Shown piece by piece: positions 1,400-29,909 of a DNA stretch of 31,007 nucleotides (positions are counted from its first letter, which is position 1; each line of letters starts with the position of its first letter). The translations under genes and the position numbers were made by a program. Below the pieces are notes generated by a model. That model saw nothing but the letters and a program-made list of their open reading frames with translations. It made no database searches and was not told where the DNA came from. Source of the stretch: a virus (Duplodnaviria; Heunggongvirae; Uroviricota; Caudoviricetes); the IMG/VR virus record IMGVR_UViG_2917881069_000004; one strand, given 5' to 3'.

Positions 1400-2425
1400 T
1401 TAATTAGTAGAAAAAAGAGTGGCTAAAGGATTTTTTGTCACCGCATCTTCAAGATGCTCTGGTGCGAAATGAGCATAAATCATGGTCATTTTTATATCGG
1501 TATGGCCTAAAATTTCTTTAAGCACAAGTATATTACCGCCATTCATCATAAAGTGGCTGGCGAATGTATGGCGTAGCACGTGGGTGCATTGTCCTTCTGG
1601 CAGTTCGATACCGGCCCGCTTTACTGCCCGCTCAAAGGCTTTTCTGCATGGTGTGAATAATTTCCCTCTATTTTTGGGAAGTTCGTCATACAGATCCTGA
1701 GATATTGGCACGGTACGGTTTTTCTTGCCCTTCGTCTTGGTGTATGTGATGCGGTATTTTGACAACTGGTGTCCCTGCAGATTTTCTGCTTCACTCCAGC
1801 GTGCTCCGGTGGCCAGGCATATTTTTGCAATCATCAGCAGGCTGGGGCTTTGAGAATCTGCGCAGGCATCCAACAGGCGCTTGATTTCGTCCATGGAAAG
1901 AAAGGCCAGCTCACCTTCAGCAATTTTAAATGTAGGAAGTCCTGCCAGTGGGTTTGGTGCTGACCAGTGTCCCAGCTTTTTCAGTGTGCCAAAAACCGAT
2001 GACAGGTTGCGTTGTTCAAGATTTACCGTGCGGGGCTTAACAGGCGACATAAGCGCGCCATCTTCATTTCGCACTTCACCCTTTAGCCGTGCTTCCCGGT
2101 ATTTCGTAAAATCACCGGCGGTCAGTTCTGAAGCGATGGGATCGCCCAGACCATTACAGATAATTTTAAGTTTCGCCATCAGGCGTTTGGGGTCAGCAAG
2201 CGTCTGTCCGTAAAGTGAGTACCATTGTTCAATCACTTCTGACAAATGTCGCCGATCTTCCTTTTCCCCCAGCCACGGTTTTTTGTTCACTTCTTCCATT
2301 GTGAAACGTTCAAACGCAATGGCTTCGCCTTTTGTCGCAAATTGTTTACGTACGCGTTTGCCATCTCGCCCGTTTGGGTAGCATTCACATAACCACTTTC
2401 CGTTCGGCTGTTTTCTGATCGTCAT
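1400..2425 (-). CDS. int: Tyrosine integrase (P2 Int-like)
   Basis: 341 aa. C-terminal catalytic signature visible (ARWSE, VLRHTFASH, HTDIKMTMIYAH). Adjacent to the att core. Start lies 2 nt beyond the cI stop, suggesting a cI-int operon. Confidence 0.9.
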   Translation of the reverse strand: MTIRKQPNGKWLCECYPNGRDGKRVRKQFATKGEAIAFERFTMEEVNKKPWLGEKEDRRHLSEVIEQWYSLYGQTLADPKRLMAKLKIICNGLGDPIASELTAGDFTKYREARLKGEVRNEDGALMSPVKPRTVNLEQRNLSSVFGTLKKLGHWSAPNPLAGLPTFKIAEGELAFLSMDEIKRLLDACADSQSPSLLMIAKICLATGARWSEAENLQGHQLSKYRITYTKTKGKKNRTVPISQDLYDELPKNRGKLFTPCRKAFERAVKRAGIELPEGQCTHVLRHTFASHFMMNGGNILVLKEILGHTDIKMTMIYAHFAPEHLEDAVTKNPLATLFSTN

Positions 2426-2427
2426 TA

Positions 2428-3066
2428 TTAGATGCTCTTAATCACTTTTACCACACGCCCTACAACGGCTACGTCATCAACTGCACATTCAAAGGTTGTT
2501 TCTTCCTGATGAACAACAAGCTTATTTCCGGGAATTCGAGCTACTTTTACGATGCTTTTCACTCCATCAATATCAACAAGCCAAGAGCCATTACTGATCT
2601 GTTTTACAGATACATCAACAATAAAACTTTCTGTTGTCGTTTGTATGAATAGATAGTTTGACGAATCGCCCTCAACCAACCTGCTATCTAATAAAATTTC
2701 GTCATATGATTGAAGTTCACCATTTCTTAATTCTGTGTATTTGATACTGGGAGCTACGATTTTAGAAAGTGGTCTAATTGTGACGTCATTATCATTTTTG
2801 AGAATGTTTGAGTCACAGTTATCTGCATACATATCACCCTGTCCGGTTGCCAACCAAAGAAGCGAGATCCCGGTTTCTAGAGCACATTGAATTACCCACT
2901 CTGCTGGAAAGCTATCTCTTAAGTATCTGTTTGCCATGGTGCTTTTAGATACTTTTAAGTGTTCGCAGAGTTGTTGGCGTGAGCTGAAATTGTAGGCTTT
3001 TATCAGCCTGTTGATGGCATCACGACCCCCACTATCGTTTCCACCCTTGATTAGACTCATAATCAA
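2428..3066 (-). CDS. cI: Immunity repressor, 186-type CI family
   Basis: 212 aa. Position between int and the divergent early operon. N-terminal HTH-like region (CALETGISLLWLATGQG) and C-terminal motifs (WLVDIDG, FECAVDD, GRVVKVI) resemble phage 186 CI as recalled. AAGGGG sits 7 nt upstream of the ATG. Confidence 0.7.
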   Translation of the reverse strand: MIMSLIKGGNDSGGRDAINRLIKAYNFSSRQQLCEHLKVSKSTMANRYLRDSFPAEWVIQCALETGISLLWLATGQGDMYADNCDSNILKNDNDVTIRPLSKIVAPSIKYTELRNGELQSYDEILLDSRLVEGDSSNYLFIQTTTESFIVDVSVKQISNGSWLVDIDGVKSIVKVARIPGNKLVVHQEETTFECAVDDVAVVGRVVKVIKSI

Positions 3067-3071
3067 ACCCC

Positions 3072-3100
3072 TTGACGCATATAAAATGAGATCTTAATAT
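3072..3100 (+). promoter_or_regulatory. Candidate early rightward promoter (pR-like)
   Basis: TTGACG (3072-3077), 17-nt spacer, TAATAT (3095-3100), in the cI/apl divergent intergenic region. Confidence 0.45.
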
Positions 3101-3457: not shown

Positions 3458-3967
3458 ATGTTTGATTACAAGATTTCCAAACATCCGCATTTTGATGAAG
3501 CCTGTAGAGCTTTTGCACTACGTCACAATATGGCGAAGCTGGCAGAACGTGCAGGAATGAATGTTCAGACACTGCGAAACAAACTCAACCCAGATCAATC
3601 GCATCAGCTCACCGCACCAGAAATCTGGCTGCTTACCGATCTGACTGAAGATTCAACGCTGGTAGATGGCTTTCTGGCACAGATTCACTGCCTGCCATGC
3701 GTACCGATTAATGAAGTGGCAAAAGAGAAACTGCCGCATTACGTCATGAGTGCAACTGCAGAGATCGGGCGTGTTGCTGCAGGTGCGGTATCTGGCGATG
3801 TAAAAACCAGTGCAGGTCGTCGTGATGCTATCAGCAGCATTAACTCTGTAACACGATTGATGGCGCTGGCGGCTGTTTCATTGCAGGCCCGTTTACAGGC
3901 TAATCCTGCGATGGCGAGTGCAGTTGATACCGTGACTGGCCTCGGTGCTTCATTCGGTTTGCTGTGA
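3458..3967 (+). CDS. cII: CII-like lysogeny establishment regulator
   Basis: 169 aa, the same length as 186 CII; follows apl; strong RBS AAGGGGG before the ATG. Confidence 0.6.
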   Translation: MFDYKISKHPHFDEACRAFALRHNMAKLAERAGMNVQTLRNKLNPDQSHQLTAPEIWLLTDLTEDSTLVDGFLAQIHCLPCVPINEVAKEKLPHYVMSATAEIGRVAAGAVSGDVKTSAGRRDAISSINSVTRLMALAAVSLQARLQANPAMASAVDTVTGLGASFGLL

Positions 3968-3974
3968 GGTGCTT

Positions 3975-4366
3975 ATGCTGACGAAAGAACCATCATTTGC
4001 ATCGCTGCTGGTAAAACAAAGCCCGGCAATGCACTACGGTCACGGCTGGATCATGGGTGAGGATGGTAAACGCTGGCATCCGTGCCGTTCACAAGATGAA
4101 TTGCTGTCTGAATTGACCACGGGGAAACGGAGAAAGTCAAAATGTATGCAGCGGAAAGTGAAGTGGTTTATCAGTTTCGTTACAGAGGGGAGAGTTATTC
4201 AGTACCTGAAGATGATTTGCTCTGTTGTTATCCGTCGTTGTCGGGCGATGGCAGTTACTTTTTCACGCTAAAGGATGGGACGTTTTTACGGGGAGAGCAG
4301 GTTAAAGAGATGATACGAAAAAATATATCTCCTCTTGAGCGTTACCGTAAGAACAAAGAGCGATAG
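3975..4366 (+). CDS. Early-region hypothetical protein, about 130 aa; apparent 1-nt frame shift near 4125-4140
   Basis: Track ORFs 3945..4271 and 4142..4366 overlap in different frames. Adding one A in the agaaag run joins them (..GKRRKVKMYAAESEVVY..). Confidence 0.45.
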
Positions 4367-4791: not shown

Positions 4792-5031
4792 TTGATTATG
4801 CGTAATATTGAAACCCTCTCGACTAAAACCGGACCGGATGACGCAGGACTTAATATTTTACTGACAGAGGCTCGTCTGGAAGAACGTCGGGCAAGAGCTG
4901 AAGCAATGGCAGCTCGCCTTGATAGCCTTGCGTGCCATATCACATCCCGCCAGCTAAACCACGTTGAAGCGGCTGAACTGCTGCGTGTGGCAGCTGAAGC
5001 AATCCAGAACGAAGCGCAGGAGATCCACTAA
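4792..5031 (+). CDS. Early-region hypothetical protein
   Basis: 79-aa ORF (alternative ATG at 4798 preceded by CAGGAGA); stop overlaps the next start. Confidence 0.5.
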   Translation: MIMRNIETLSTKTGPDDAGLNILLTEARLEERRARAEAMAARLDSLACHITSRQLNHVEAAELLRVAAEAIQNEAQEIH

Positions 5032-5258
5032 TGGCTGATGCAATGGATCTCGTACAGCAGCGCGTTGAAGAAGAACGCCAGCGTCATATCCGTGCCGCCC
5101 GTGCCAAAACGCCGGGCGTGTCCCGCGTGCTTTGCATTGAGTGTGAAGCGCCAATTCCGCCAGCACGCCGCCGTGCCATTCCGGATGTGCAGCTTTGCAT
5201 TACCTGTCAGGAAATCGCAGAGCTGAAAGGCAAACATTACAACGGAGGTGCTGTATGA
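5031..5258 (+). CDS. TraR/DksA-family C4 zinc-finger protein
   Basis: 75 aa with CIEC...x17...CITC, the CxxC-x17-CxxC spacing typical of TraR/DksA-type phage proteins. Its stop overlaps the Dam start (ATGA). Confidence 0.7.
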   Translation: MADAMDLVQQRVEEERQRHIRAARAKTPGVSRVLCIECEAPIPPARRRAIPDVQLCITCQEIAELKGKHYNGGAV

Positions 5259-6112
5259 GCACCATCCTGAAATGGGCGGGAAATAAAACCGCCATTATGT
5301 CCGAACTGAAAAAGCATCTTCCTGCTGGCCCGCGACTGGTTGAACCTTTCGCGGGTTCCTGTGCAGTGATGATGGAGACGGAGTACCCCAGCTATCTTGT
5401 TGCGGATATTAATCCTGATTTAATCAACCTCTATAAAAAGGTTGCTGCTGATTGTGAATCGTTTATATCTCGCGCCAGAGTTTTATTTGAGATCGCAAAC
5501 AGGGAGGTGGCTTATTACAACATAAGGCAGGAGTTTAATTACTCAACTGAAATTACTGATTTCATGAAAGCGGTATATTTCCTGTATCTCAATCGTCACG
5601 GTTACCGTGGTTTATGTCGCTATAACAAGAGCGGGCATTTCAACATTCCCTACGGTAATTATAAAAATCCGTATTTCCCTGAAAAAGAAATTCGCGCATT
5701 TGCAGAAAAAGCCCAGCGAGCAACGTTTATCTGCGCCAGCTTTGATGAAACGCTGGCGATGTTGAAGGCGGGGGATGTGGTGTATTGCGATCCGCCGTAT
5801 GACGGTACGTTTTCCGGCTATCACACTGATGGCTTCACTGAGGATGACCAGTATCACCTGGCATCCGTTCTTGAACATCGATCATCTGAAGGTCATCCGG
5901 TCATTGTTTCTAACAGTGACACATCCCTGATTCGTTCGCTGTATCGCAATTTCACTCACCACTACATCAAGGCAAAACGCAGCATCGGCGTGTCGGCTGG
6001 CGAGAGTAAATCTGCAACAGAAATCATTGCTGTTTCCGGGGCGCGCTGCTGGGTGGGATTTGATCCTTCGCGTGGCGTGGATAGTTCTGCTGTGTACGAG
6101 GTGCGTGTATGA
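5255..6112 (+). CDS. dam: DNA N6-adenine methyltransferase (Dam-like), orphan
   Basis: About 285 aa starting [11 protein letters not shown] with GGAGG 7 nt upstream. Motif I-like PFAGSCAV and catalytic DPPY ([10 protein letters not shown]) are present. No adjacent restriction endonuclease candidate. Confidence 0.85.
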
Positions 6113-8522
6113 GTCATGACGATATGAGCAACTCTAGCGGCTTTAACGAGGCCGCAGCAGCATTTTCATGGAACGGCCCGAAAAAGGCCATTAACCCTTA
6201 TCTGGACCCGGCGGAAGTTGCGCCGGTTTCTGCGCTTTCAAACCTGATCACTCTGTACGCTGCCGATAACGAGCAGGAACAACTGCGCCGCGAGGCACTG
6301 AGTGATCAGGTCTGGGAGCGTTATTTCTTTAATGAATCCCGTGATCCTGTCCAACGCGAAATGGAGCAGGATAAGCTCATTAGCCGGGCAAAGCTGGCGC
6401 ATGAGCAGCAGCGTTTTAATCCAGATATGGTCATTCTGGCGGACGTCAATGCCCAGCCTTCCCATATCAGCAAGCCGCTGATGCAACGTATTGAATACTT
6501 CAGCAGCCTGGGCAGGCCAAAGGCTTATTCCCGCTATTTGCGTGAGACGATTAAGCCATGTCTGGAACGACTGGAGCATGTACGCGACAGTCAGCTATCC
6601 ACTTCTTTTCGCTTTATGGCAAGCCATGAAGGGCTGGACGGCCTGCTGATCCTGCCTGAAATGAGTCAGGATCAGGTGAAACGCTTGTCTACCCTTGTCG
6701 CTGCGCATATGAGCATGTGCCTTGATGCAGCTTGTGGCGATTTGTATGTCACCGATGACGTTAAGCCAGAAGAAATCCGCAATACATGGGAAAAGGTGGC
6801 AGCGGAAACCCTGCGTCTGGATGTCATCCCGCCTGCGTTTGAGCAACTCCGCCGGAAAAGAAACCGCCGTAAACCCGTGCCCTATGAACTCATTCCGGGT
6901 TCGCTGGCGCGTATGTTGTGCGCTGACTGGTGGTACCGGAAATTATGGAAGATGCGTTGCGAATGGCGGGAAGAGCAGTTGCGTGCTGTCTGCCTGGTCA
7001 GCAAAAAAGCATCTCCCTATGTCAGCTATGAAGCCGTGATGCATAAACGTGAGCAGCGCCGTAAGTCGCTGGAGTTTTTTCGTTCTCATGAACTGGTGAA
7101 CGAAGACGGCGACACGCTGGACATGGAGGATGTGGTAAACGCCAGCAGCAGCAACTCTGCGCATCGCCGCAATGAGATGATGGCCTGTGTTAAAGGCCTG
7201 GAGCTTATCGCGGAAATGCGCGGTGACTGCGCCGTTTTCTACACCATCACCTGTCCGTCACGTTTCCATTCCACGCTAAATAACGGCAGGCCCAACCCGA
7301 CCTGGACAAATGCGACGGTAAGACAAAGCAGTGATTATCTGGTCGGCATGTTTGCTGCATTTCGTAAGGCGATGCACAAAGCCGGATTGCGCTGGTATGG
7401 CGTGCGGGTGGCTGAGCCGCATCATGACGGTACAGTTCACTGGCACCTGTTGTGTTTTATGCGCAAAAAAGATCGCCGCGCCATTACTGCTTTGTTGCGT
7501 AAGTTTGCCATTCGTGAAGACCGCGAGGAGCTGGGGAATAACACGGGACCACGCTTTAAGTCTGAGTTGATTAACCCGCGCAAAGGAACGCCGACAAGCT
7601 ACATCGCGAAATATATCAGCAAGAACATTGACGGGCGTGGTCTGGCTGGCGAGATCAGCAAGGAAACGGGTAAATCTCTGCGTGATAACGCTGAATACGT
7701 TAATGCCTGGGCGTCTCTGCATCGTGTTCAGCAATTCCGCTTCTTTGGTATTCCGGGGCGTCAGGCTTACCGTGAACTGCGATTGCTGGCTGGTCAGGCG
7801 GCAAGGCAACAGGGCGACAAAAAGCAGGTGCGCCGGTACTGGATAACCCGCGCCTTGATGCCATCCTGGCTGCTGCTGATGCTGGTTGTTTTGCCACTTA
7901 CATCATGAAGCAGGGTGGTGTACTGGTTCCCCGCAAATATCACCTCATCAGAACTGCTTATGAAATTAACGAAGAGCCGACCGCCTATGGCGATCACGGC
8001 ATTCGTATTTATGGCATCTGGTCACCCATTGCAGAGGGCAAGATCTGCACTCATGCAGTGAAGTGGAAAATGGTTCGTAAAGCCGTTGACGTTCAGGAGG
8101 CGGTAGCCGACCAGGGCGCTTGCGCCCCTTGGACTCGTGGCAATAACTGTCCCCTTGCTGAAAATTTGAACCAACATGAGAAAGATAAATCAGCAGACGG
8201 GGATACCAGAACGGACATTTCCTGCATGGATGACAAGGAATTGCACGATTACCTGCACAGTATGGGCAAAAAAGAGCACCGGGAACTGGCAGCAAGATTA
8301 CGCCTGGTTAAACCGAAACGGCGTAAAGACCACAAACAGCGAATTACAGACCATCAGCGTCAGCAGCTCGTCTATGAACTGAAGTCCAGAGGATTTGATG
8401 GCAGCGAGAAAGAAGTCGATTTACTGCTTCGTGGCGGCAGTATTCCGTCAGGAGCAGGCCTGCGTATCTTCTATCGGAACCAGCGTTTGCAGGAAGATGA
8501 TAAGTGGCGGGATCTGTATTAA
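6109..8522 (+). CDS. A: Rolling-circle replication initiator (P2 gpA-like); apparent 1-nt frame shift near 7810-7820
   Basis: HUH-type motif [10 protein letters not shown]. Track ORFs 6109..7908 and 7905..8522 are continuous in sense (..QGDKK / [32 protein letters not shown]..) if the A5 run is A6. Confidence 0.8.
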
Positions 8523-8932: not shown

Positions 8933-9232
8933 TTAGTTGTTCCCCAAAGAGCCGGCCATGGCTGCATATTTAATTTCTTCGCTGGGTATTTCAGGATGTA
9001 GTTGAATTTGCCTGATGACATAGCCAGGAACTTCGTCACTCCACAGTTTCGCCGCGTCCTTACAGACCTTATACGCGAAGTCTCTATTCTCAAAGGCATA
9101 GGATTTTCCGTATGCATATTGCTGACAGGCATGAACATAAGCTCCGAAGTCGCCGTCTTTATCTGGCAAAGCACATCCAGCCAAGGCTATGATGATTGCT
9201 ACTAACGTAAAGGAGAAAGTTATACGTTTCAT
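8933..9232 (-). CDS. Small lipoprotein (99 aa), unknown function
   Basis: Signal peptide with lipobox LAGC (MKRITFSFTLVAIIIALAGC..). Located in the A-Q variable island. Confidence 0.65.
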   Translation of the reverse strand: MKRITFSFTLVAIIIALAGCALPDKDGDFGAYVHACQQYAYGKSYAFENRDFAYKVCKDAAKLWSDEVPGYVIRQIQLHPEIPSEEIKYAAMAGSLGNN

Positions 9233-9340: not shown

Positions 9341-10147
9341 TTATTTAGAAAGGTACTTATCTCTAAGTTGATTCAGTCTGTCAGCATCGCGTTCTGAAAA
9401 CTCGGCGTCACCATAGATCGATTTCCCATCTGCGTCTTCAAGGCCAATGACTGTGACGGTAAATATAGCATCAGCCGGAACTTTAAGTTTTCCCCAATCA
9501 GAGTATCTATTAGGGGCTAATTTCCAGTTGGCTTTCTCACCTGGTTCCAGACCTCCAGAAATTTTATAGTTGAAGACGTCAGAGAACCAAGGGACGCTTC
9601 TTCCTGGACTGGCAATAACTCCTTTGAAGAATACTCTGGCAACCGCTTTGTCTGTTCCGTTTTCAACGCTAATATCCAGAATTGGCTGATCATTGCCGTA
9701 ATCCTCTTTCTGGAAATAAAAACGGGAACGTTCGACCTTGAAGGCTTTCATTTTTTCCGCAGCCTGTGTTGCAGAGGTTTGTTTGGCTTCCAGTTCTTTT
9801 ATTTCTTGCAGAGCCTGTTCTTTCTCTCTCTTCTCACGCTCAAGGCGAATAGTTTGTGCGTAATTTATAACCTCATCACCAGTTTTACCTTCCAACGCTG
9901 ACTTAATTTTTGTTTCGTAGACGTCCCCAGAAGACGTTCCAGCCTGCATTAGCTCTCTCATGTTGATTTGGCTAAAGGCAACGACTTTAACTGCATCATC
10001 AAACTGAGCTTTTTTATCTGCAGGTAAGGACTCTCTTACTTTTTGAATGGACTCTTTCATCGACTGATCGCTTGATGCATCGATCTTCGGTTTGTCACAA
10101 GCAGTAAGCAGCAGAGCAAAAGCAATTACGCCAGTTAATTTCTTCAT
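9341..10147 (-). CDS. Lipoprotein (about 267 aa), unknown function
   Basis: Track ORF 9341..10219. The likely true start is the internal ATG at 10147 (MKKLTGVIAFALLLTAC, lipobox LLTAC), because the upstream extension is the translation of a hairpin plus T-run. Central Lys/Glu-rich predicted coiled region. Confidence 0.65.
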   Translation of the reverse strand: MKKLTGVIAFALLLTACDKPKIDASSDQSMKESIQKVRESLPADKKAQFDDAVKVVAFSQINMRELMQAGTSSGDVYETKIKSALEGKTGDEVINYAQTIRLEREKREKEQALQEIKELEAKQTSATQAAEKMKAFKVERSRFYFQKEDYGNDQPILDISVENGTDKAVARVFFKGVIASPGRSVPWFSDVFNYKISGGLEPGEKANWKLAPNRYSDWGKLKVPADAIFTVTVIGLEDADGKSIYGDAEFSERDADRLNQLRDKYLSK

Positions 10148-10161
10148 ATCCCTATCCCAAT

Positions 10162-10197
10162 CGTAAAAAAACAAGGCTAATCCTAACAGGATTAGCT
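10162..10197 (-). terminator. Terminator-like hairpin plus U-tract in the leader of the lipoprotein gene
   Basis: On the minus strand CTAATCCT-gtt-AGGATTAG (perfect 8-bp stem) is followed by CCTTGTTTTTTT, 15 nt upstream of the ATG at 10147. A candidate -35/-10 pair (TTTATA-17-TATGAG) lies just upstream. Confidence 0.5.
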
Positions 10198-10662
10198 GGC
10201 ATGACAAACTCATAGCCATATAGGTGTGCTGTATAAATTAGCGGGATGAGAAAGCCTGCGCAGCCCCTCATGTTGAAACTTGATTTTAGCTCAAAAGAGC
10301 TGACACTAAATAACTGCGCGGAATAATGCTCCACTTTCGGTTAGCCCTTGCTGGGTAAGGCGTGGGGCCGTTTTCTTCGCCTGATCCTGCTGTATCTGGC
10401 CTACAGTATGTTGCCCTTACGCGACATGCCACATGTCAGTAAACGGCAGGTGTAGCAGTATTAGACGCAGCTATTTAGTGTGTATTAAGCTGGCTCATAT
10501 TTATGACTGGTTTCAAGGTTTGACCGATTTTCATGTCATGCATGTCTATGCTGCATGAGTTCGCATGATCGTTTGAGGATCGGTTTGGCTAAGACATGCC
10601 AGAACTGGCGGGCTTTTGCTCATGTCATGCAGGTGCATGAAAACCACTACATAAAGCGGGCA

Positions 10663-10841: not shown

Positions 10842-11885
10842 TCAGCTTCGTTTGCCCTTAAGTCCTAAGTCATAGGCTTCAAAACGGATAACCTCTTCAT
10901 CCAGCCAGTCATTCAGCTCCTGCAGTCGCTTTTGCAGGGGCATCAGTTCATTGCGGACGAAGACACGGCTCGCTTTTTCCACATCCCCAAAGCCGCCAGT
11001 GTTGTTGGGAATGATGCCCATCATTTGCGGCGGTACGCGGTGAGCCGCCATCATGTCATCGCGGCTGACGTTCTTGATGTTCAGAAATTCATCCTTCGCC
11101 GCGACTTCCGACAACGGGATAATCTGAATGCCATCTTTTTTGCCGTTAGGCGAGTACATAAACAGGTTGCGGAAGTTGCCCGGTCCTTTAGCACTTTTCA
11201 TTGCCTTGCGGATGTTGTTCACATCCTCCTGGTTCTGTGCGGCGTCGGTCATGTACATGATGAAGCCTGCGTGGCTGCCGTTAATGTAATACTTGCGGCG
11301 GAACAGCGTGGCGGATTCGTTGAGCAGAGCTGACGGAATGGCAGAAAGGTAACCCGGCAGACCATAAATCTCCTGGTTGATATCCGGCTCCATCAGGTGG
11401 AAGACGTTACCTTTTGTGAACTGATACGGCTGTGTCGTCAGGCTGTATTGCACAAACCAGTATGTTTCAAGGTCAAGCCCGCGTCGGGTGTATTTTGCCA
11501 GTGCAGGCTCCAGCGAAATAACTTCACCAAAGCGGTTCGTGCGTTTCTCCAGGTAGGCGTTACCAAAAACCAGATAGTCCTGCACAAAACGGGTAAATGC
11601 CTGCTGGCTGAGAAGGCGATGTGGAATATAGGTACTGCTGATAATGTCACGCTTAACACTGATCGGGGAGCTGTGGTGCACGGCGGCGCGGAAGGTGCGC
11701 GCCAGTCCGTCAAAGCTGACGGGTGGCTCATACCAGCGATCCATCTGTACGCATTCCACATAGTCCAGCAGTTCGCGGCGGTCCAGTACAGGAATGGGAT
11801 CACCAAAGCTGAAAGCCTCCGCAACGGGTTTTTTAGTTTCTTCTGCAGTTACGGTTTCGCCTGGCGCGATATGTTCTTTCATCAA
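10842..11885 (-). CDS. Q: Portal protein (P2 gpQ-like)
   Basis: 347 aa (P2 Q is about 344 aa). Start overlaps the terminase stop. Position next to cos. Confidence 0.85.
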   Translation of the reverse strand: MMKEHIAPGETVTAEETKKPVAEAFSFGDPIPVLDRRELLDYVECVQMDRWYEPPVSFDGLARTFRAAVHHSSPISVKRDIISSTYIPHRLLSQQAFTRFVQDYLVFGNAYLEKRTNRFGEVISLEPALAKYTRRGLDLETYWFVQYSLTTQPYQFTKGNVFHLMEPDINQEIYGLPGYLSAIPSALLNESATLFRRKYYINGSHAGFIMYMTDAAQNQEDVNNIRKAMKSAKGPGNFRNLFMYSPNGKKDGIQIIPLSEVAAKDEFLNIKNVSRDDMMAAHRVPPQMMGIIPNNTGGFGDVEKASRVFVRNELMPLQKRLQELNDWLDEEVIRFEAYDLGLKGKRS

Positions 11886-13646
11886 AAAATCTCCACAATA
11901 TTGCTGGTATTGGCGGACTCGCCCTGCAGCGGTTCGTTAAACAGTGCGTGCATGGTTGCCCATGCCAGATCGGCGTGGCTGGCTTCTTCGCTGCGGCTGG
12001 CTTCGTAGGTCGGGCGGTTGCCACTGGCGGTGGTGGCGCGACGGATTGCCATGAATGACTGCGCAATGTCGGTATGTCCGGCGTCAAACTCCAGACGGCG
12101 GTGGCTGATAATGTCGTAGGCCTTGAGTACCAGGGCGTTTTTAACGTTGGGGTTGTAGACAAACTCCCGGACGGCAGGAAAGAACGCTTTCACGTTCTCG
12201 TAAACCCCGTGACCGACGCCGGTTGAGTCGATACCGATATAGGTCACGTTGTACTGTTCGGTCAGTTTTTTGATGGCGTCAGCTGGGCGCGGAAGTCCAT
12301 CCCGCGCCACTGGTGACGCTCAAGAATGCGGAACTTACCGCCTGGCACGGCTGGCGGTGCCACCACCACGCATCCGGCGCTGTCGCCGTTCTGCGTACCT
12401 TTTGCCGGGTCATAACCGATCCACACTTCGCGCCAGCCAAACGGGCGCAGGGCCAGTGCATGAAAGTCGGTCCAGACTTCCCAGCTGTCCACCATGCACG
12501 CCTGCAATTCGCTGAGCGGGAACACAGATGCGAGATCGTCAACGAACTCGCACATCAGCAGGTTCTGGTATTCGTCCGGGCTGTACTCCATGCGCAACTG
12601 GTCGAGGTCGAACAGGTTACAGCCGCCGCGTACCGCATCTTCCACGGTGATTATCTGGCGGTATTGCCCGTCTGCGCACAGCAGGCCGGGGGCCAGATTG
12701 CTGTGGGACAGGTCGATGTCCACCTTATCGGCTTTGTTGCGCCCACGGTTGAACAGCGCACCGGACCAGAACGGATAAGCACTGTGTGTCAGGCTGGATG
12801 GCGTGGAAAAATAGGTCTGTCGCCATTTCTTGTGAATAGCCATACCGGAAGCCACTTTGCGCAGCTCCTGGAATTTCGGTATCCAGAAATATTCATCCAG
12901 ATACAGGTTGCCGTGGTAACTCTGGGCCGTGCGGGCATTGGTGCCGAGGAAATACAGTGTGGCCCCGTTGGGAAGCACCATCGGATCGCCTTTCAGCTCC
13001 ACCTCCACTTCTTTGGCGAAGTCGATGATGTACTGCTTAAAGACGTGGGCCTGTGCCTTACTGGCAGAAAGGAAAATCTGGTTACGTCCGGTAAGCAGGG
13101 CGTCAATCAGGGCTTCACGGGCAAAGTAAAAGGTCGCACCGATCTGGCGTGACTTCAGCAGGTTGCGGATGCGGTTGGTTTTTCCGGCTTCCCACCAGTG
13201 GCGCTGGTAGTTGAACATGGAGGAATGGAAGATTTCTTCCAGCTTCTCAATCTGTTCATCGGTGAAAACGTTCTTTTCCGGCTGACGACGCGGGCCTTTG
13301 TTGCGGTTGGCGACGTTAGGGTTTAAGTCGCTTCGTTGCCGCCATTGTTAAACTTGCCGATCCGCGCGTGGCGCTCCGACTGGCGCGCCAGCAGGTCAAT
13401 CTCTTTGAAATCTTTCCCTTCTTTGTGCTCCTTCATAATGAGCTGGCAGTAGCGTGCGGCGGTGGTGAGCTGCATCTGATCCAGCGGCCCATAATCACCC
13501 CACTTGTCGCGTTTTTTCCAGCTGTGAACGGTTGCAACTTTCTCGCCCAGCATTTCAGCAATGCGGGCTACGCGGTATCCCTGAAAGTACAGCAGCATGG
13601 CCTGCCGACGGGGATCGAGATCTGCGGGTGTCAGTGTGGTGTTCAT
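11882..13646 (-). CDS. P: Terminase large (ATPase) subunit (P2 gpP-like); two apparent 1-nt frame shifts
   Basis: Three track ORFs (13323..13646, 12262..13218, 11882..12310) tile one gene of about 588 codons. Junctions lie near 13327-13347 and near 12285-12300 (ccc run). The sense continues across both junctions. Confidence 0.8.
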
Positions 13647-13788: not shown

Positions 13789-14621
13789 ATGACAGTGAAA
13801 GCAAAGCGTTTTCGCATCGGGGTGGAAGGTGCCACCACCGACGGACGCGAAATCCAGCGTGAATGGCTGGAACAGATGGCAGCCAGCTACAACCCGGCGG
13901 TGTATACCGCGCTGATTAACCTTGAGCACATTAAGTCTTATCTGCCGGACAGCACCTTTAATCGCTACGGCAAGGTGACGGCATTGTTTGCTAAAGAAAT
14001 CACGGAAGGTCCGCTGGCGGGCAAGATGGCGCTGTATGCCGACGTTGAGCCAACGGAGTCCCTGGTGGAGCTGGTGAAAAAAGGCCAGAAATTATTCACC
14101 TCTATGGAAGTCAGCCCGAAGTTTGCTGATACGGGCAAAGCCTACCTGGTCGGCCTGGCTGCCACTGATGATCCCGCCAGTCTGGGTACGGAAATGCTGA
14201 CATTCAGCGCCAGTGCAGCCCATAACCCGCTGGCAAATCGCAAGCAGAATCCCGCCAATCTCTTTACCGCCGCAGAGGAAACGGTGATCGAACTGGAAGA
14301 AGTCCAGGACGACAAACCGTCCCTGTTTGCCCGCGTCACGGCGCTGTTCACCAAAAAGAGCAGTCAGACGATGCCCGGTTCTCTGATGTGCATAAGGCCG
14401 TGGAGCTGGTCGCCACTGAGCAGCAAAACCTGAGCGGACGCACCGAAAAATCCCTGTCTGAGCAGGAAGAACGCCTGTCTGAGCTGGAGACTGCTCTGCA
14501 GGAGCAGCAAACCGCCTTTAACGAACTGGTGAATAAGCTGAGTCATGAAGACAGCCGCCAGGACTACCGCCAGCGTGCAACAGGCGGTAACGCCCCCGCT
14601 GACACTCTGACCAATTGCTGA
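13789..14621 (+). CDS. O: Capsid scaffold protein (P2 gpO-like); apparent 1-nt frame shift near 14370
   Basis: Track ORFs 13789..14433 and 14388..14621 overlap in different frames and sum to about 277 aa (P2 O is about 284 aa). Confidence 0.75.
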
Positions 14622-19155: not shown

Positions 19156-19595
19156 ACTGCAGAAGGTGGACGACTGGCTGAATGCCTTGCTGGCGAATCT
19201 GGAACCAGCCGCCAGAAGCCGCATGATGCGCCAGCTGGCGCAGGAACTGCGCCGGACACAGCAGCAGAACATCAGGATGCAGCGCAATCCTGATGGCAGC
19301 AGCTATGAACCGAGGCGAGTAACAGCACGCAGTAAAAAAGGCCGTATCAAAACGTCAGATGTTTGCAAAGCTGCGCACCACAAAATACCTGAAAACCGCC
19401 GCCAGCGCCGACTCTGCCAGCGTCCAGTTTGAAGGCAAGGTACAGCGCATTGCCCGTGTTCATCACTACGGCCTGCGCGATCGCGTCAGTCGTAAGGGAC
19501 CGGAGGTCCGTTACGCAGAGCGTCGCCTTCTGGGTGTAAATGATGATGTTGAGGCAATGACCCGTGACATGATTCTGCAATGGCTGGCGGGGTGA
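19148..19595 (+). CDS. S: Tail completion protein (P2 gpS-like); apparent 1-nt frame shift near 19340
   Basis: Track ORFs 19148..19432 and 19359..19595 join to about 149 aa (P2 S is 150 aa) if an aaaa run is aaa (..GRIKRQMFAKLRTTKY..). Confidence 0.7.
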
Positions 19596-24169: not shown

Positions 24170-25341
24170 ATGGCTCAGGATTACCACCACGGGGTGCGCG
24201 TTGTTGAAGTCAACGAAGGCACCCGATCCATTACCACGGTGAGCACCGCCATCGTGGGTATGGTCTGCACGGGCGATGATGCCGATGCAAAAATGTTTCC
24301 TCTTAATAAACCCGTGCTGATCACTGATGTACTGACCGCCAGCGGTAAAGCGGGTGAGTCCGGCACGCTGGCCCGTTCGCTGGATGCCATCGCTGACCAG
24401 GCAAAACCCGTGACCGTTGTTGTGCGTGTGCCGCAGGGTGAAACGGAAGAAGAAACCACGACCAATATCATCGGCGCAGTGACTGCTGAAGGTAAAAAAA
24501 CAGGCATGAAAGCCCTGTTATCTGCCCAGACACAGCTCGGCGTTAAACCGCGCATTCTCGGCGTGCCAGGTCACGATAACAAAGCCGTTGCTACTGAGTT
24601 GCTGAGTGTGGCGCAAAGCTGCGTGGGTTTGCCTACCTGTCAGCGTATGGCTGCAAGACGGTACAGGAGGCGATCACTTACCGTGAAAACTTCAGCCAGC
24701 GCGAAGGAATGCTGATCTGGCCTGACTTTACTGGCTGGGACACGGTGCTGAATGCCGAAGCAATGGCATATGCCACCGCTCGTGCGCTTGGTCTGCGTGC
24801 CAAAATTGATGAGCAGACCGGGTGGCACAAAAGCCTGTCCAACGTGGGCGTGAACGGTGTCACCGGAATTTCTGCAGATGTGTTCTGGGATCTGCAGGAC
24901 CCGGCAACCGATGCAGGTCTGCTGAACCAGAACGACGTCACCACGCTTGTGCGTAAAGACGGGTTCCGCTTCTGGGGTTCCCGCTGTCTGAGCGATGATC
25001 CGCTCTTTGCCTTCGAAAACTACACCCGCACGGCGCAGGTGCTGACGGACACAATGGCAGAAGCGCATATGTGGGCGGTGGACAAACCGCTGAACCCGTC
25101 GCTGGCCCGCGACATTATCGAAGGTATCCGCGCCAAAATGCGCAGCCTGGTCAGTCAGGGCTATCTCATTGGTGGTGATTGCTGGCTGGACGAGTCGGTG
25201 AATGACAAAGACACGCTGAAAGCCGGAAAACTCACCATCGATTACGACTACACGCCAGTACCGCCACTTGAAAACCTGATGCTGCGTCAGCGCATCACCG
25301 ATCAGTACCTGGTGAATTTCTCCAGCCAGGTAAGCGCGTAA
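24170..25341 (+). CDS. FI: Tail sheath protein (P2 gpFI-like); apparent 1-nt frame shift near 24616-24620
   Basis: Track ORFs 24170..24715 and 24709..25341 sum to about 390 aa (P2 FI is about 396 aa). The frame is restored if caaag is caaaag (..[41 protein letters not shown]..). Confidence 0.8.
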
Positions 25342-26349: not shown

Positions 26350-29300
26350 ATGAGTGACAATAACCTGCGTCTGCAGGTGATTCTGAATGCGGTTGACAAG
26401 CTCACCCGCCCATTTCGATCCGCGCAGGCCAGTTCAAGAGAACTGGCTGCTGCTGTCAAAAAATCCCGCGATGCAATAAAGCAGCTTGATCAGGCCGGGA
26501 GCAGTCTGGACAGCTTCCGAAAGCTGCAGGCAGAAAATCAGAAATTAGGCGACAGGCTGAACTATGCCCGCCAGCGTGCAAATTTACTCAGTCATGAACT
26601 GGGATCAATGGGGCCGCCTTCGCAACGTCAGGTTGTTGCTCTGGGCCGTCAACGGCTGGCTGTTCAGCGCCTGGAAGAACGCCAGAAAAAGCTGCAGCAG
26701 CAGACGGCGCTTGTGCGTGCAGAACTTTATCGTGCTGGTATTTCAGCTAATGATGGCGCCAGTGCGACGGCCCGCATTACCCGTGAAACGATGCGTTATA
26801 ACAGGCAGCTTTCTGAGCAGGAAGCGAGGTTACGACGTGTCGGGGAGCAACAGCGAAAAATGCACGCCGCCCGGGGGGCTTACGCCAGGCGTCTTGAAGT
26901 AAGGGATCGGATTGCCGGGGCCGGAGCCACCACCACGGCTGCAGGGCTGGCAATGGGCGCACCAGTGATGGCGGCAGTAAAAAGCTATACCAGCATGGAA
27001 GATGCCATGAAAGGTGTGGCAAAGCAGGTCAATGGTCTGCGTGACGATAATGGCAACCGCACTGCGCGTTTTTACGAAATGCAGGATGCCATCAAGGCTG
27101 CCAGCGAACAGTTGCCGATGGAAAACGGTGCTGTGGACTTCGCCGCACTGGTTGAAGGTGGTGCGCGCATGAACGTCGCAAACCCTGACGACAGTTGGGA
27201 AGACCAGAAACGTGACCTGCTGGCCTTCGCCAGCACGGCGGCAAAGGCGGCAACAGCCTTTGAGCTGCCAGCGGATGAACTGTCAGAAAGTCTGGGGAAA
27301 ATCGCCCAGCTCTACAAAATCCCTACACGCAATATTGAACAGCTCGGTGACGCGCTGAACTATCTGGATGATAACGCCATGTCGAAAGGGGCAGACATCA
27401 TTGATGTCATGCAACGCCTGGGCGGTGTGGCTGACCGTCTGGATTATCGTAAAGCGGCGGCGCTGGGTTCAACCTTCCTGACACTGGGCGCTGCGCCGGA
27501 GGTTGCAGCCAGTGCAGCAAACGCGATGGTGCGTGAATTGTCCATTGCCACCATGCAGAGCAAGAGTTTCTTTGAAGGAATGAATCTGCTGAAACTCAAT
27601 CCTGAAGTGATTGAAAAGCAGATGACGAAGGATGCGATGGGAACCATCCAGCGCGTACTGGAGAAGGTGAATGCGCTTCCGCAGGATAAGCGCCTGTCTG
27701 CCATGACCATGTTGTTTGGTAAAGAGTTTGGCGATGACGCGGCGAAACTGGCAAACAACCTGCCGGAACTGCAGCGCCAGCTAAAACTGACAGCGGGCAA
27801 TGATGCGCTCGGCTCCATGCAGAAAGAATCCGACATTAACAAGGATTCACTTTCTGCGCAGTGGTTGCTGGTCAAAACCGGAGCGCAGAACACCTTCAGC
27901 AGCCTGGGCGAAACGCTGCGCCAGCCGCTGATGGATATTCTGTACACGGTGAAAAGCGTCACGGGGGCGTCGCGTCGCTGGGTGGAAGCTAACCCGGAAC
28001 TGACGGGCACACTGATGAAAGTAGCCGCTGTTGTGGCTGCGGTTACCGTGGGCCTCGGCACCCTGGCTGTGGTGTTGGCTGCAGTGCTGGGGCCGCTGGC
28101 AGTCATCCGTCTGGGATTCTCTGTGCTGGGTATCAAGACGTTACCTTCGGTGACGGATGCAGTAACACGAACCAGCAGCGCGTTATCCAGGCTGGCAGGC
28201 GCGCCACTGGCAGTACTGCGACGCGGGTTTGCTTCATCGGGGAGCAGTGCGGGTTTGCTTACTGCGCCGCTGTTGTCTTTGCGCCGCACGGCATCACTGA
28301 CGGGAAATGCCCTGAAAACTGTGGCAGCTGCGCCTGTTGCACTGTTGCGGTCCGGTTTATCCGGTTTACGTGCTGTTGCCTTGATGTTTATGAATCCACT
28401 GGCGGCACTGCGCGGTGGACTGACTGCCGCAGGTGCAGTGTTGCGAGTGCTGGCATCCGGTCCGCTGGTGATGCTGCGCGTTGCCCTGTATGCCATATCT
28501 GGTCTGTTAGGTGCTCTGCTCAGTCCGATAGGTCTTGTGGTTACTGCACTGGCGGGCGTGGCGCTGGTTGTCTGGAAATACTGGCAACCCATCACCGCAT
28601 TTCTCGGTGGCGTGGTGGAAGGATTCAAAGCGGCGGCAGGTCCCATCAGTGCCGCATTCGAACCACTTAAGCCCGTGTTTCAGTGGATTGGTGACAAAGT
28701 GCAGGCTCTGTGGGGCTGGTTTACTGATCTGCTGACGCCCGTTAAGTCGACCTCTGCCGAACTGCAGAGCGCAGCGGCAATGGGGCGACGATTCGGGGAG
28801 GCGACTGGCAGAAGGGCTGAATATGGTCATGCATCCGCTGGACTCCCTGAAATCCGGCGTTTCCTGGTTGCTGGAGAAACTCGGCATTATCAGTAAAGAG
28901 GCTGCAAAGGCGAAACTGCCGGAAAGCGTGACGCGTCAGCAACCCGCAACAGTGAATGCAGACGGCAAAGTGATGATGCCATCAGGTGGTTTTCCGTCAT
29001 GGGGATATGGCTTTGCGGGGATGTATGACAGCGGCGGGTATATCCCGCGCGGGCAGTTTGGCATCGTCGGTGAAAACGGGCCGGAAATTGTTAACGGCCC
29101 GGCAAATGTGACCAGCCGGAGAAATACAGCTGCACTGGCTGCCGTTGTTGCCGGAATGATGGGCGTTGCTGCCGCGCCAGCAGAGCTTCCACCGTTGCAT
29201 CCTTTGGCGCTTCCCGCGAAAGGCGGCAAAGCGATGGTGAGTCGCGCAGCTACTGTGCCGCCCGTTCACCGGATTGAGGCACCGACGCAGATCATCATCC

Positions 29301-29428
29301 AGACGCAGCCAGGACAAAGTGCGCAGGATATTGCGCGGGAGGTGGCCCGCCAGCTTGATGAACGTGAACGCAGGCTGAAGGCAAAAGCCAGGAGTAACTA
29401 CAGCGATCAGGGGGGATACGACGCATGA
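26350..29428 (+). CDS. T: Tail tape measure protein (P2 gpT-like); apparent 1-nt frame shift near 28790-28825
   Basis: Track ORFs 26350..28896 and 28823..29428 overlap in different frames. The second carries a typical tape-measure C-terminal region (GGYIPRGQFGIVGENGPEIVNGPANVTS). Coiled Ala/Leu/Gln-rich body. Confidence 0.8.
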
Positions 29429-29909
29429 TGATGGTGCTGGGATTGTATGTGTTTATGCTGCGCACCGTACCGTATCAGGAACTGCAGTATCAACGCAGCT
29501 GGCGACATGCGGCTAACAGTCGGGTAAACCGTCGTCCGTCCACGCAGTTTCTGGGACCGGACAACGACATGCTGACGCTTTCTGGTGTTCTTATGCCGGA
29601 GATAACAGGCGGCAGGCTGTCGTTGCTGGCACTGGAGCAGATGGCAGAACAGGGGAAAGCATGGCCCCTGATTGAAGGCAGCGGCACGATTTATGGCATG
29701 TATGTGATTGAGGGACTGAATCAGACTAAAACGGAGTTTTCCGCGACGGTATGCCGCGCCGGATTGAGTTCACCCTGTCGCTCAAACGGGTGGATGAATC
29801 TCTGTCCGATATGTTCGGTGATCTCAGTGCGCAACTGAATAATCTGCAGGAAACGGCAACATCTGCTTTAAGCGATATCAGTAAAACGGTGGGAGGGCTG
29901 CTGTCGTGA
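29425..29909 (+). CDS. U: Tail protein (P2 gpU-like); apparent 1-nt frame shift near 29745-29755
   Basis: Track ORF 29425..29838 (137 aa). Adding one T to a T4 run gives ..TEFFRDGMPRRIEFTLSLKRVDESLSDMFGDLSAQLNNLQETATSALSDISKTVGGLLS, ending at the stop at 29907-29909; total about 161 aa (P2 U is 159 aa). Confidence 0.75.

Follow-up and report, generated by a model that had tools for sequence, protein, structure and literature searches.

Why does a temperate phage carry a DNA adenine methyltransferase with a specificity that its enterobacterial host, which has a GATC-methylating Dam of its own, already provides? The question is raised by a 31,007-nucleotide stretch of viral DNA (IMG/VR record IMGVR_UViG_2917881069_000004, the whole of which is called the window here). 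Within the P2 family of prophages the window belongs to the Fels-2/RE2010 type, and the gene in question, dam, encodes a 285-residue N6-adenine DNA methyltransferase just upstream of the replication initiator gene A. In the reading that we favor, with a probability of roughly 70%, the product is a solitary, GATC-specific Dam of the Fels-2/RE2010/retron-Ec67 lineage, which is made early in lytic growth and fully methylates the GATC sites of replicating and packaged phage DNA. The GATC activity, the restriction of expression to the early lytic phase and the benefit to the phage are what we infer within this reading.

The open reading frame (ORF) extends from an ATG at 5255 to a TGA at 6110-6112. 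A longer alternative frame would use a TTG start at 5195, but every homologue begins at MSTILKW instead. The protein matches the Pfam family PF02086 (MethyltransfD12) across the entire profile (positions 1-253 of 253) with E = 1e-76 and 258.5 bits against a cutoff of 22, and the NCBIfam model TIGR00571 "dam" with 324 bits against a cutoff of 114.85. Its top match in the Protein Data Bank (PDB) is Escherichia coli Dam, or EcoDam (2G1P/4GOL, E = 5e-73), with which it shares 47% identity over 263 aligned positions in a global alignment. The order of motifs is that of the alpha group, with motif I at residues 32-36, a target-recognition hairpin at 117-136 and DPPY at 179-182, all colinear with EcoDam. 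An earlier note on this DNA had proposed a Dam-type adenine methyltransferase at 5255-6112, and the profiles, the DPPY motif and the contact residues described below uphold its coordinates, its description and its catalytic plausibility. The identical protein is deposited as WP_135520211.1 from Escherichia sp. E2661. Some database entries (P0008, P0009, P0080, P0057 and P0062) have the Dam domain fused to gpD-like PF05954 or to gpA PF05840, and the 90% cluster that contains the query is a mixture of 285-residue Dam and 804-residue gpA sequences; probably these fusions and the mixed cluster reflect frameshifted or deleted prophages, or clustering through fusion proteins.

The residues needed for catalysis and for reading the target are largely those of EcoDam. 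In motif IV, D179, P180 and Y182 are unvarying in 21 aligned sequences (20 clade members plus EcoDam), and P181 is replaced by Gln in a single sequence. The GAT CCG codons for the catalytic Asp-Pro of this motif themselves form a GATC site at 5789-5792, which places the predicted target inside the coding sequence of the enzyme's own active site. In EcoDam, K9 and Y138 recognize the first base pair of the target, L122 and P134 touch the third, R124 touches the guanine of the fourth, and Y119 intercalates (PMC4417163). Six of the seven mapped EcoDam contact residues are identical in the prophage enzyme, as K6, Y117, L120, R122, P132 and Y136 (EcoDam K9, Y119, L122, R124, P134 and Y138), and all six are unvarying in the 20 clade members, at 70-97% identity. 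The exceptions relative to EcoDam are N120, which is Arg here, and R137, which is Asn. Pairwise dN/dS values of 0.06-0.15 between this dam and its relatives indicate strong purifying selection. The earlier note had called for a motif-level comparison with Dam; that comparison predicts GATC as the target and finds the catalytic motif DPPY in place, rather than another specificity or a dead enzyme. By sequence, then, this is predicted to be an active, GATC-specific enzyme.

The prophage enzyme and EcoDam belong to the same fold family and share motif order, DPPY and GATC-reading residues, while differing in a 5-residue deletion that follows DPPY in the prophage protein and in a clade-specific C-terminal tail in place of the EcoDam C-terminus. 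This tail of 25 residues is common to the clade and absent from EcoDam, and W266, G268, D270, G274 and D276 within it are nearly invariant. An AlphaFold2 model built from the 20-sequence clade alignment had a mean predicted local distance difference test (pLDDT) score of 43.6, too poor to inform on the tail. In motif I, which binds S-adenosylmethionine, the third Gly is replaced by Cys. The resulting FAGSC is fixed in 20 of 20 clade members and, because it is fixed across a clade under purifying selection, is probably tolerated.

The gene is already known and very common: it is the long-known orphan Dam of Fels-2/Ec67-type prophages, a status that follows from its annotation in the Fels-2 and SopEPhi records, from the Ec67 literature and from its spread through E. 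coli genomes. Members of the same family, the "DNA adenine methylase" of 186-related prophages such as those with retron-Ec67, occupy the same locus between the TraR-like gene and A in RE2010 (gp10, 98% protein identity), Fels-2 (STM2730, 74%) and SopEPhi (orf8, 73%). The Fels-2 and SopEPhi records describe their own copies as similar to "retron EC67 DNA adenine methylase", a name also borne by one member of the 97%-identity Dam cluster, and PMC7826664 cites the 1990 publication of the Ec67 element with its Dam ORF. The TraR-Dam segment of the window shares 96.6% identity with Salmonella phage RE2010 and about 96% with many Klebsiella prophages, and 1241 of 5426 complete E. coli genomes carry the module. 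Nothing of substance differs in Dam between this prophage and these relatives; the prophage is set apart by frameshifts in A, the terminase and several tail genes and, with respect to RE2010, by a 186-type CI of another immunity type. Taken by itself, the dam gene adds nothing new, since about a quarter of the complete E. coli genomes have this methylase annotated already. Solitary GATC adenine methyltransferases with no nuclease partner are also found in other phages, including P1 Dmt, T2/T4 Dam, VT-2 Dam and the Dam of Haemophilus HP1 (PMC7556043). These are distant in sequence (P1 dmt is 36% identical to the Dam described here, and T4 Dam matches it with E = 5e-18) and lie in different contexts, P1 and T4 being non-P2-like and having neither TraR nor gene A next to the methylase.

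That the gene is an orphan, as the earlier note had stated for its immediate neighborhood, is borne out by several searches. Pfam and PADLOC scans were applied to the ORFs of the early operon, those left of the integrase, the cargo ORFs from A to portal and ten ORFs of the late region, and the rest of the late region was assessed by its colinearity with an annotated P2-like record only. No restriction nuclease was found among the scanned ORFs, the only nuclease-type proteins being the gpA replication nickase and the terminase. The families recovered were integrase, CI, CII, Fil, DUF5347, DUF2732, TraR, gpA, DUF6694, portal, terminase and P2-type structural proteins, and the gene calls of the source contig are consistent with this. 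In some 20 relatives outside the genus (among them Citrobacter, Kluyvera, Erwinia, Enterobacter, Tatumella, Franconibacter, Pantoea, Yersinia and Serratia) no restriction enzyme lies beside Dam, whose neighbors are always genes of the phage replication operon. The best PADLOC model is likewise that of an orphan methyltransferase (oMTase PDLC03729, 370 bits, compared with 289 bits for the best Type II model), so the gene is classed as a solitary methyltransferase and not as part of a Type II restriction-modification system.

The position of dam in the prophage suggests when it would be expressed. Gene order runs from an integrase (1400-2425, minus strand) through a 186-type CI repressor gene, also on the minus strand, an Apl/Cox-like gene, cII (3458-3967), fil, DUF5347, DUF2732, TraR and Dam to A, followed by a short cargo region and then by the P2-type portal, terminase and structural genes. 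The series int-CI-apl-cII-fil-...-DUF2732-TraR-Dam-A agrees with the annotated records of 186, P2, Fels-2 and RE2010, and the placement of dam in an early operon, as first proposed, can now be made more precise: the operon is the early lytic one of a prophage of the P2/186 type. The only plus-strand sigma-70 promoter match between CI and gene A is the putative pR, TTGACG-N17-TAATAT at 3072-3100, and the phage 186 record is annotated with repression of pR by CI. By homology with 186, dam would be transcribed from this putative CI-repressed promoter and would be silent in the lysogen because it lies downstream of it. It would be translated as one link of a chain of coupled genes and, because that chain ends in A, Dam would be made as rolling-circle replication begins.

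Several benefits can be proposed for a phage Dam made at this time. Endogenous Dam is reported to be rate-limiting for high-copy DNA (bioRxiv 10.1101/2020.06.22.160242); host Dam could likewise be limiting at high phage copy number, and the phage enzyme would complete GATC methylation of fast-replicating and packaged DNA. Progeny DNA might then be shielded from nucleases that are sensitive to methylation and cleave at or across GATC, and could evade host systems acting on hemimethylated or unmethylated GATC (MutH, SeqA). A conserved GATC in pR, discussed below, would also be held in a defined methylation state. The site itself is not avoided in the window, where 108 GATC were observed and 120-143 expected. 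Dam enzymes are known from the phages P1, T-even, VT-2 and HP1, the last of which is P2-like; PMC7556043 describes the role of such enzymes as "still not well understood". The methylome of strain LT2, a Fels-2 lysogen, contains no motif beyond the known ones (PMC8496262), which fits either a GATC-specific or a silent enzyme.

Four points weigh against this reading. The protein scores 287.8 bits against the NCBIfam equivalog for housekeeping Dam, NF008152, under its cutoff of 441; the gene lies inside a P2-family prophage and not at the chromosomal dam locus, so it is no housekeeping orthologue. The FAGSC motif in place of FxGxG and the Arg at the position of N120 make altered kinetics or an altered flanking preference conceivable. 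Because GATC is already methylated by the host, a selective benefit of a second enzyme is unproven. Finally, the prophage carries at least eight frameshifts relative to RE2010, in A, the large terminase (two), the scaffold, S, the sheath, the tape measure and U, and with essential genes so affected a productive cycle in which this copy of dam is expressed may never take place. Where they overlap, the window and GenBank contig PDIG01000035.1 of assembly GCA_004745185.1 are identical, and this deposited assembly shows the same frameshifts; an independent Logan contig with the same Dam also has the 205-residue C-terminal fragment of A as a separate gene. The frameshifts may mark a decaying or defective prophage, or they may be homopolymer sequencing errors in the assembly.

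The gene just upstream of dam belongs to the TraR/DksA C4 zinc-finger family, with the four zinc-binding cysteines in CIEC...CITC and PDB matches to YbiI (2KGO) and to TraR in RNA polymerase complexes (5W1S/6N57). Its TGA at 5256-5258 overlaps the ATG of dam (5255-5257) in an ATGA, and a GGAGG Shine-Dalgarno (SD) sequence at 5244-5248 lies 6 nt upstream, which confirms the translational coupling that had been noted earlier. The TGA of dam (6110-6112) overlaps the ATG of gene A at 6109-6111 in the same way. All junctions from TraR to A are in fact alike: the last codons of the upstream gene encode the SD (GGAGGTG or GAGGTG), and the next ATG overlaps the stop codon. According to an annotation in the phage 186 record, A is apparently translated only when the ORF upstream of it is translated to its end. 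Gene A itself is split by a 1-nt deletion in a run of A residues near 7818, as aligned with the intact 804-residue RE2010 gene. The coordinates of these and the other features are collected in Table 1.

Table 1. Features of the prophage discussed in the text, in window coordinates.
Feature	Position	Strand	Basis or remark
186-type CI immunity repressor	2428..3066	-	PF07022, PF16452; expected to silence pR, and with it dam, in lysogens
Putative early lytic promoter pR, TTGACG-N17-TAATAT	3072..3100	+	GATC at 3090-3093; position as annotated 186 pR
DUF2732 gene (P2 orf80 / 186 orf79 equivalent)	4792..5031	+	PF10809, E = 5e-29; precedes TraR; synteny with P2, 186, Fels-2
TraR/DksA-family C4 zinc-finger protein, 75 aa (P2 orf82 / 186 orf80 equivalent)	5031..5258	+	PF01258, E = 1e-10; TIGR02419, 63.1 bits (cutoff 59.7)
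TraR-to-Dam junction cassette GGAGGTGCTGTATGA	5244..5258	+	SD, 6 nt, ATG overlapping TGA
dam, orphan Dam-family methyltransferase (D12 class, alpha group), 285 aa	5255..6112	+	predicted target GATC
Motif I (S-adenosylmethionine binding), F32-A-G34-S-C36	5348..5362	+	FxGxG in EcoDam; from alignment
Target-recognition hairpin, aa 117-136 (Y117, R118, L120, R122, P132, Y136)	5603..5662	+	EcoDam Y119, N120, L122, R124, P134, Y138
Catalytic motif IV DPPY, aa 179-182	5789..5800	+	aligns with EcoDam D181-Y184
Dam-to-A junction cassette GAGGTGCGTGTATGA	6098..6112	+	SD, 7 nt, ATG overlapping TGA
Replication initiator gene A (rolling-circle nickase)	6109..8522	+	PF05840, E = 3e-126; split 6109-7908 / 7905-8522
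Frameshift in A	~7818
Frameshifted terminase	11882-13646	-
Frameshifted scaffold	13789-14618
Frameshifted S	19166-19586
Frameshifted sheath	24170-25341
Frameshifted tape measure	26350-29428
Frameshifted U	29425-29903

The earlier note had also described the pairing of TraR with Dam as recurring and poorly explained, a view that gives way once gene order is considered. TraR homologues occur in 168 phage records, all of the P2 family and including P2, 186, PSP3 and Wphi, which are without Dam; about 56 of the 168 also have this Dam. Dam homologues occur in 479 phage records, mostly from non-P2-like phages (P1, N4-like, jumbo phages and cyanophages). Among the Dam-carrying relatives TraR and Dam are adjacent in about half, one or two ORFs separate them in about seven, and TraR is undetected in four; some relatives have other genes between Dam and A, and in BIS20 and ENT90 gene A directly follows TraR. 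The interval from TraR to A behaves as a slot. In 186 it holds a DnaQ-like exonuclease, DUF5405 and a PAPS-reductase-like gene (orf81-84), in P2 it holds DUF5405 (orf83) only, and here it holds Dam alone, the position and the chain of 4-nt ATGA overlaps ending in A being the same in all three. In about 20 relatives TraR or DUF3850 always lies upstream of Dam, and downstream of Dam lie A, PAPS-reductase-like, C5-methyltransferase or exonuclease genes. The coupling of TraR to Dam is therefore real but a property of the cargo slot upstream of A, since every junction from TraR to A has the ATGA design, and it does not show that the two proteins act together.

The slot gathers DNA- or RNA-modifying cargo. 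Genes found in it together with Dam include a C5-cytosine DNA methyltransferase in a Kluyvera relative (L012, 6876-7874), a DUF3850/ASCH protein in several genera (L008, 5702-6004), a PAPS-reductase-like protein in Enterobacter (L014, 6855-7865) and a 3'-5' exonuclease in Serratia (L028, 4796-5371). In relatives, the cassette GGAGGTGCTGTATGA recurs nearly verbatim where TraR, DUF3850 or another cargo gene ends, and in 186 it is found at the TraR-exonuclease junction; across the window and the loci L002, L008, L010, L012 and L014 a near-identical form, GGAGGTGCTGTATGA or GAGGTGCG.G.ATGA, closes each gene from TraR to A. Such a cassette may be a recombination linker by which cargo genes are exchanged in the slot. 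The apparent pairing of TraR with Dam is accounted for by this gene order, in which varied DNA-metabolism cargo lies upstream of A behind a conserved SD and ATGA cassette.

A second cargo region lies between A and the portal gene, and holds two leftward genes, one (8933-9232) for a 99-residue protein with a lipoprotein-like N-terminus and the other (9341-10219) for a 292-residue DUF6694 protein. PADLOC matched no model to either of these two. RE2010 has an AIPR protein at the same site, and P2 carries old/tin at this position. Elsewhere, the 108-residue Fil ORF is longer than the 66-residue one of RE2010 (in the stretch 3945-4366), and between fil and DUF5347, where the sequence is unlike RE2010, there is an additional 74-residue ORF (4142-4366) that matches no family. 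Just outside the integrase, on the minus strand, a 126-residue ORF (490-870) has only a sub-threshold match to DUF4709; CP019275, the closest relative from E. coli, has this ORF too. No tRNA gene marking an attachment site was found in the window.

Three other accounts of the enzyme have to be set against an early-lytic, GATC-specific Dam. Its specificity could be relaxed or directed at a sequence other than GATC, or its catalysis impaired, as the Cys in motif I, the Arg and Asn at the positions of N120 and R137 and the conserved 25-residue tail foreign to EcoDam might suggest, and non-specific phage adenine methyltransferases do exist (PMC7556043). The known non-specific phage enzymes, however, belong to other families, the equivalents of R124, L122, P134, K9, Y138 and Y119 are all kept along with DPPY, and the substitutions are fixed in a clade under strong purifying selection; we consider this very unlikely. 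The methyltransferase could instead be one half of a restriction-modification or other defense system whose nuclease lies elsewhere in the element, given that PADLOC Type II methyltransferase models match it too and that P2-like phages carry defense cargo near the portal, as with the AIPR protein of RE2010. Against a best PADLOC class of orphan, scanned ORFs in which no nuclease or defense model was matched and about 20 relatives with no restriction enzyme beside Dam, such a partnership is extremely improbable. Lysogenic conversion, in which expression of the prophage Dam in the lysogen would raise or reprogram GATC methylation of the host and alter its gene expression or mutation rate, draws on the breadth of the TraR-Dam module in E. 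coli genomes (1241 of 5426) and on the host phenotypes of excess Dam, extra Dam setting off the toxicity of retron-Sen2 (bioRxiv 10.1101/2020.06.22.160242). Yet dam lies about 2.2 kb into the operon of pR, on the side that a 186-type CI switch represses, a promoter scan gave no separate promoter, and a terminator-like hairpin lies upstream at 4232-4251; the specificity is moreover that of the host enzyme, and the LT2 methylome has only known motifs (PMC8496262). We regard lysogenic conversion as very unlikely. The reprogramming of host GATC methylation raised in the earlier note is unlikely on the same grounds, namely a gene behind a putative CI-repressed promoter, no other plus-strand promoter match upstream and a redundant specificity.

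Three leads from the literature were set aside. The "Dam homolog" M.EcoMIV of strain EC958, which is poorly transcribed in the lysogen (PMC4659465), was not used as evidence, as two 50-kb stretches of EC958 contained no P2-like prophage and the nearby prophage looks Mu-like. The idea that Fels-2 Dam triggers retron-Sen2 was dropped, the dam genes tested there being those of E. coli, the Salmonella chromosome and P1 (bioRxiv 10.1101/2020.06.22.160242). Literature on Salmonella ST64B and on a Serratia PP4 prophage turned out to be unrelated.

The early promoter itself offers a further place to look for the function of Dam. In the putative pR a GATC lies 12 nt after the -35 hexamer and 1 nt before the -10, and the same layout is seen in Fels-2, RE2010 and most Dam-carrying relatives. 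For the comparison, which covered loci L001, L004, L005, L008-L020 and L087-L166, promoters were chosen by hexamer score alone, blind to GATC, and are unmapped consensus matches; for 186 the promoter so picked is the annotated pR. GATC stands at this exact offset in 33 of about 41 distinct pR types from Dam-carrying loci, and these 33 fall into 12 families with otherwise unrelated spacers and flanks, which argues that the GATC is not part of an immunity-specific operator. A sample of 80 186-like loci without Dam, with 46 promoter types, contains no GATC at this offset, although six Dam-less types of the PSP3-like immunity family have a GATC abutting the -10. Counted by promoter types in the first sample alone, the association between Dam and the pR GATC has a Fisher p of 1.8e-4. 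No description of this arrangement was found in the literature.

That pR senses methylation, and that the phage Dam feeds back on it, is a lead rather than a finding. If the conserved GATC in its own pR were the main target of Dam, the enzyme made from pR would hold newly replicated copies of the site in the fully methylated state, which could alter the action of RNA polymerase or of the repressor and so commit the phage to lysis or time it, a proposal compatible with a general role in completing the methylation of phage DNA. The exact offset in 33 of about 41 Dam-carrying types from 12 unrelated families, its absence from all 46 Dam-less types and the Fisher test on the first sample speak for it, and methylation-responsive GATC promoters are known, for example that of the IS10 transposase (PMC4659465). 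The association may just separate two lineages, however, one Felsduovirus-like and one Eganvirus-like, by shared ancestry. Seven Dam-carrying pR types are wholly without the GATC, SopEPhi has Dam and yet GATT at the site, and four loci that have lost Dam retain the pR GATC; in three of these four, no more than 35 nt separate TraR from A. Host Dam would in any case methylate the site, the promoters are consensus matches rather than mapped start sites, and the direction of an effect is not predictable. On balance we think it unlikely that the pR GATC is the main target. A report that Dam favors SopEPhi excision (PMC7380047) was dropped as support, given the GATT in that phage.

The IS10/Tn10 transposase promoter offers a parallel, with a GATC in the core promoter, as in pR, whose methylation state could gate RNA polymerase (PMC4659465). 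The pR GATC differs in lying in the spacer, at about -17 to -14, and not in a hexamer, and the methylation sensitivity of pR is putative; in the pR case, moreover, the methylase is encoded by the operon that the promoter drives. It is a speculative and rather unlikely extension that pR in the Dam branch of P2/186-like phages evolved to read GATC methylation, so that the phage's own Dam, made from pR and translationally tied to the replication initiator, would close an epigenetic lysis-lysogeny loop. If it is true, phage-borne Dam enzymes that appear "redundant" would gain a defined regulatory target. The question of why phages carry a Dam that duplicates the host's can be addressed at a concrete site, the GATC in pR.

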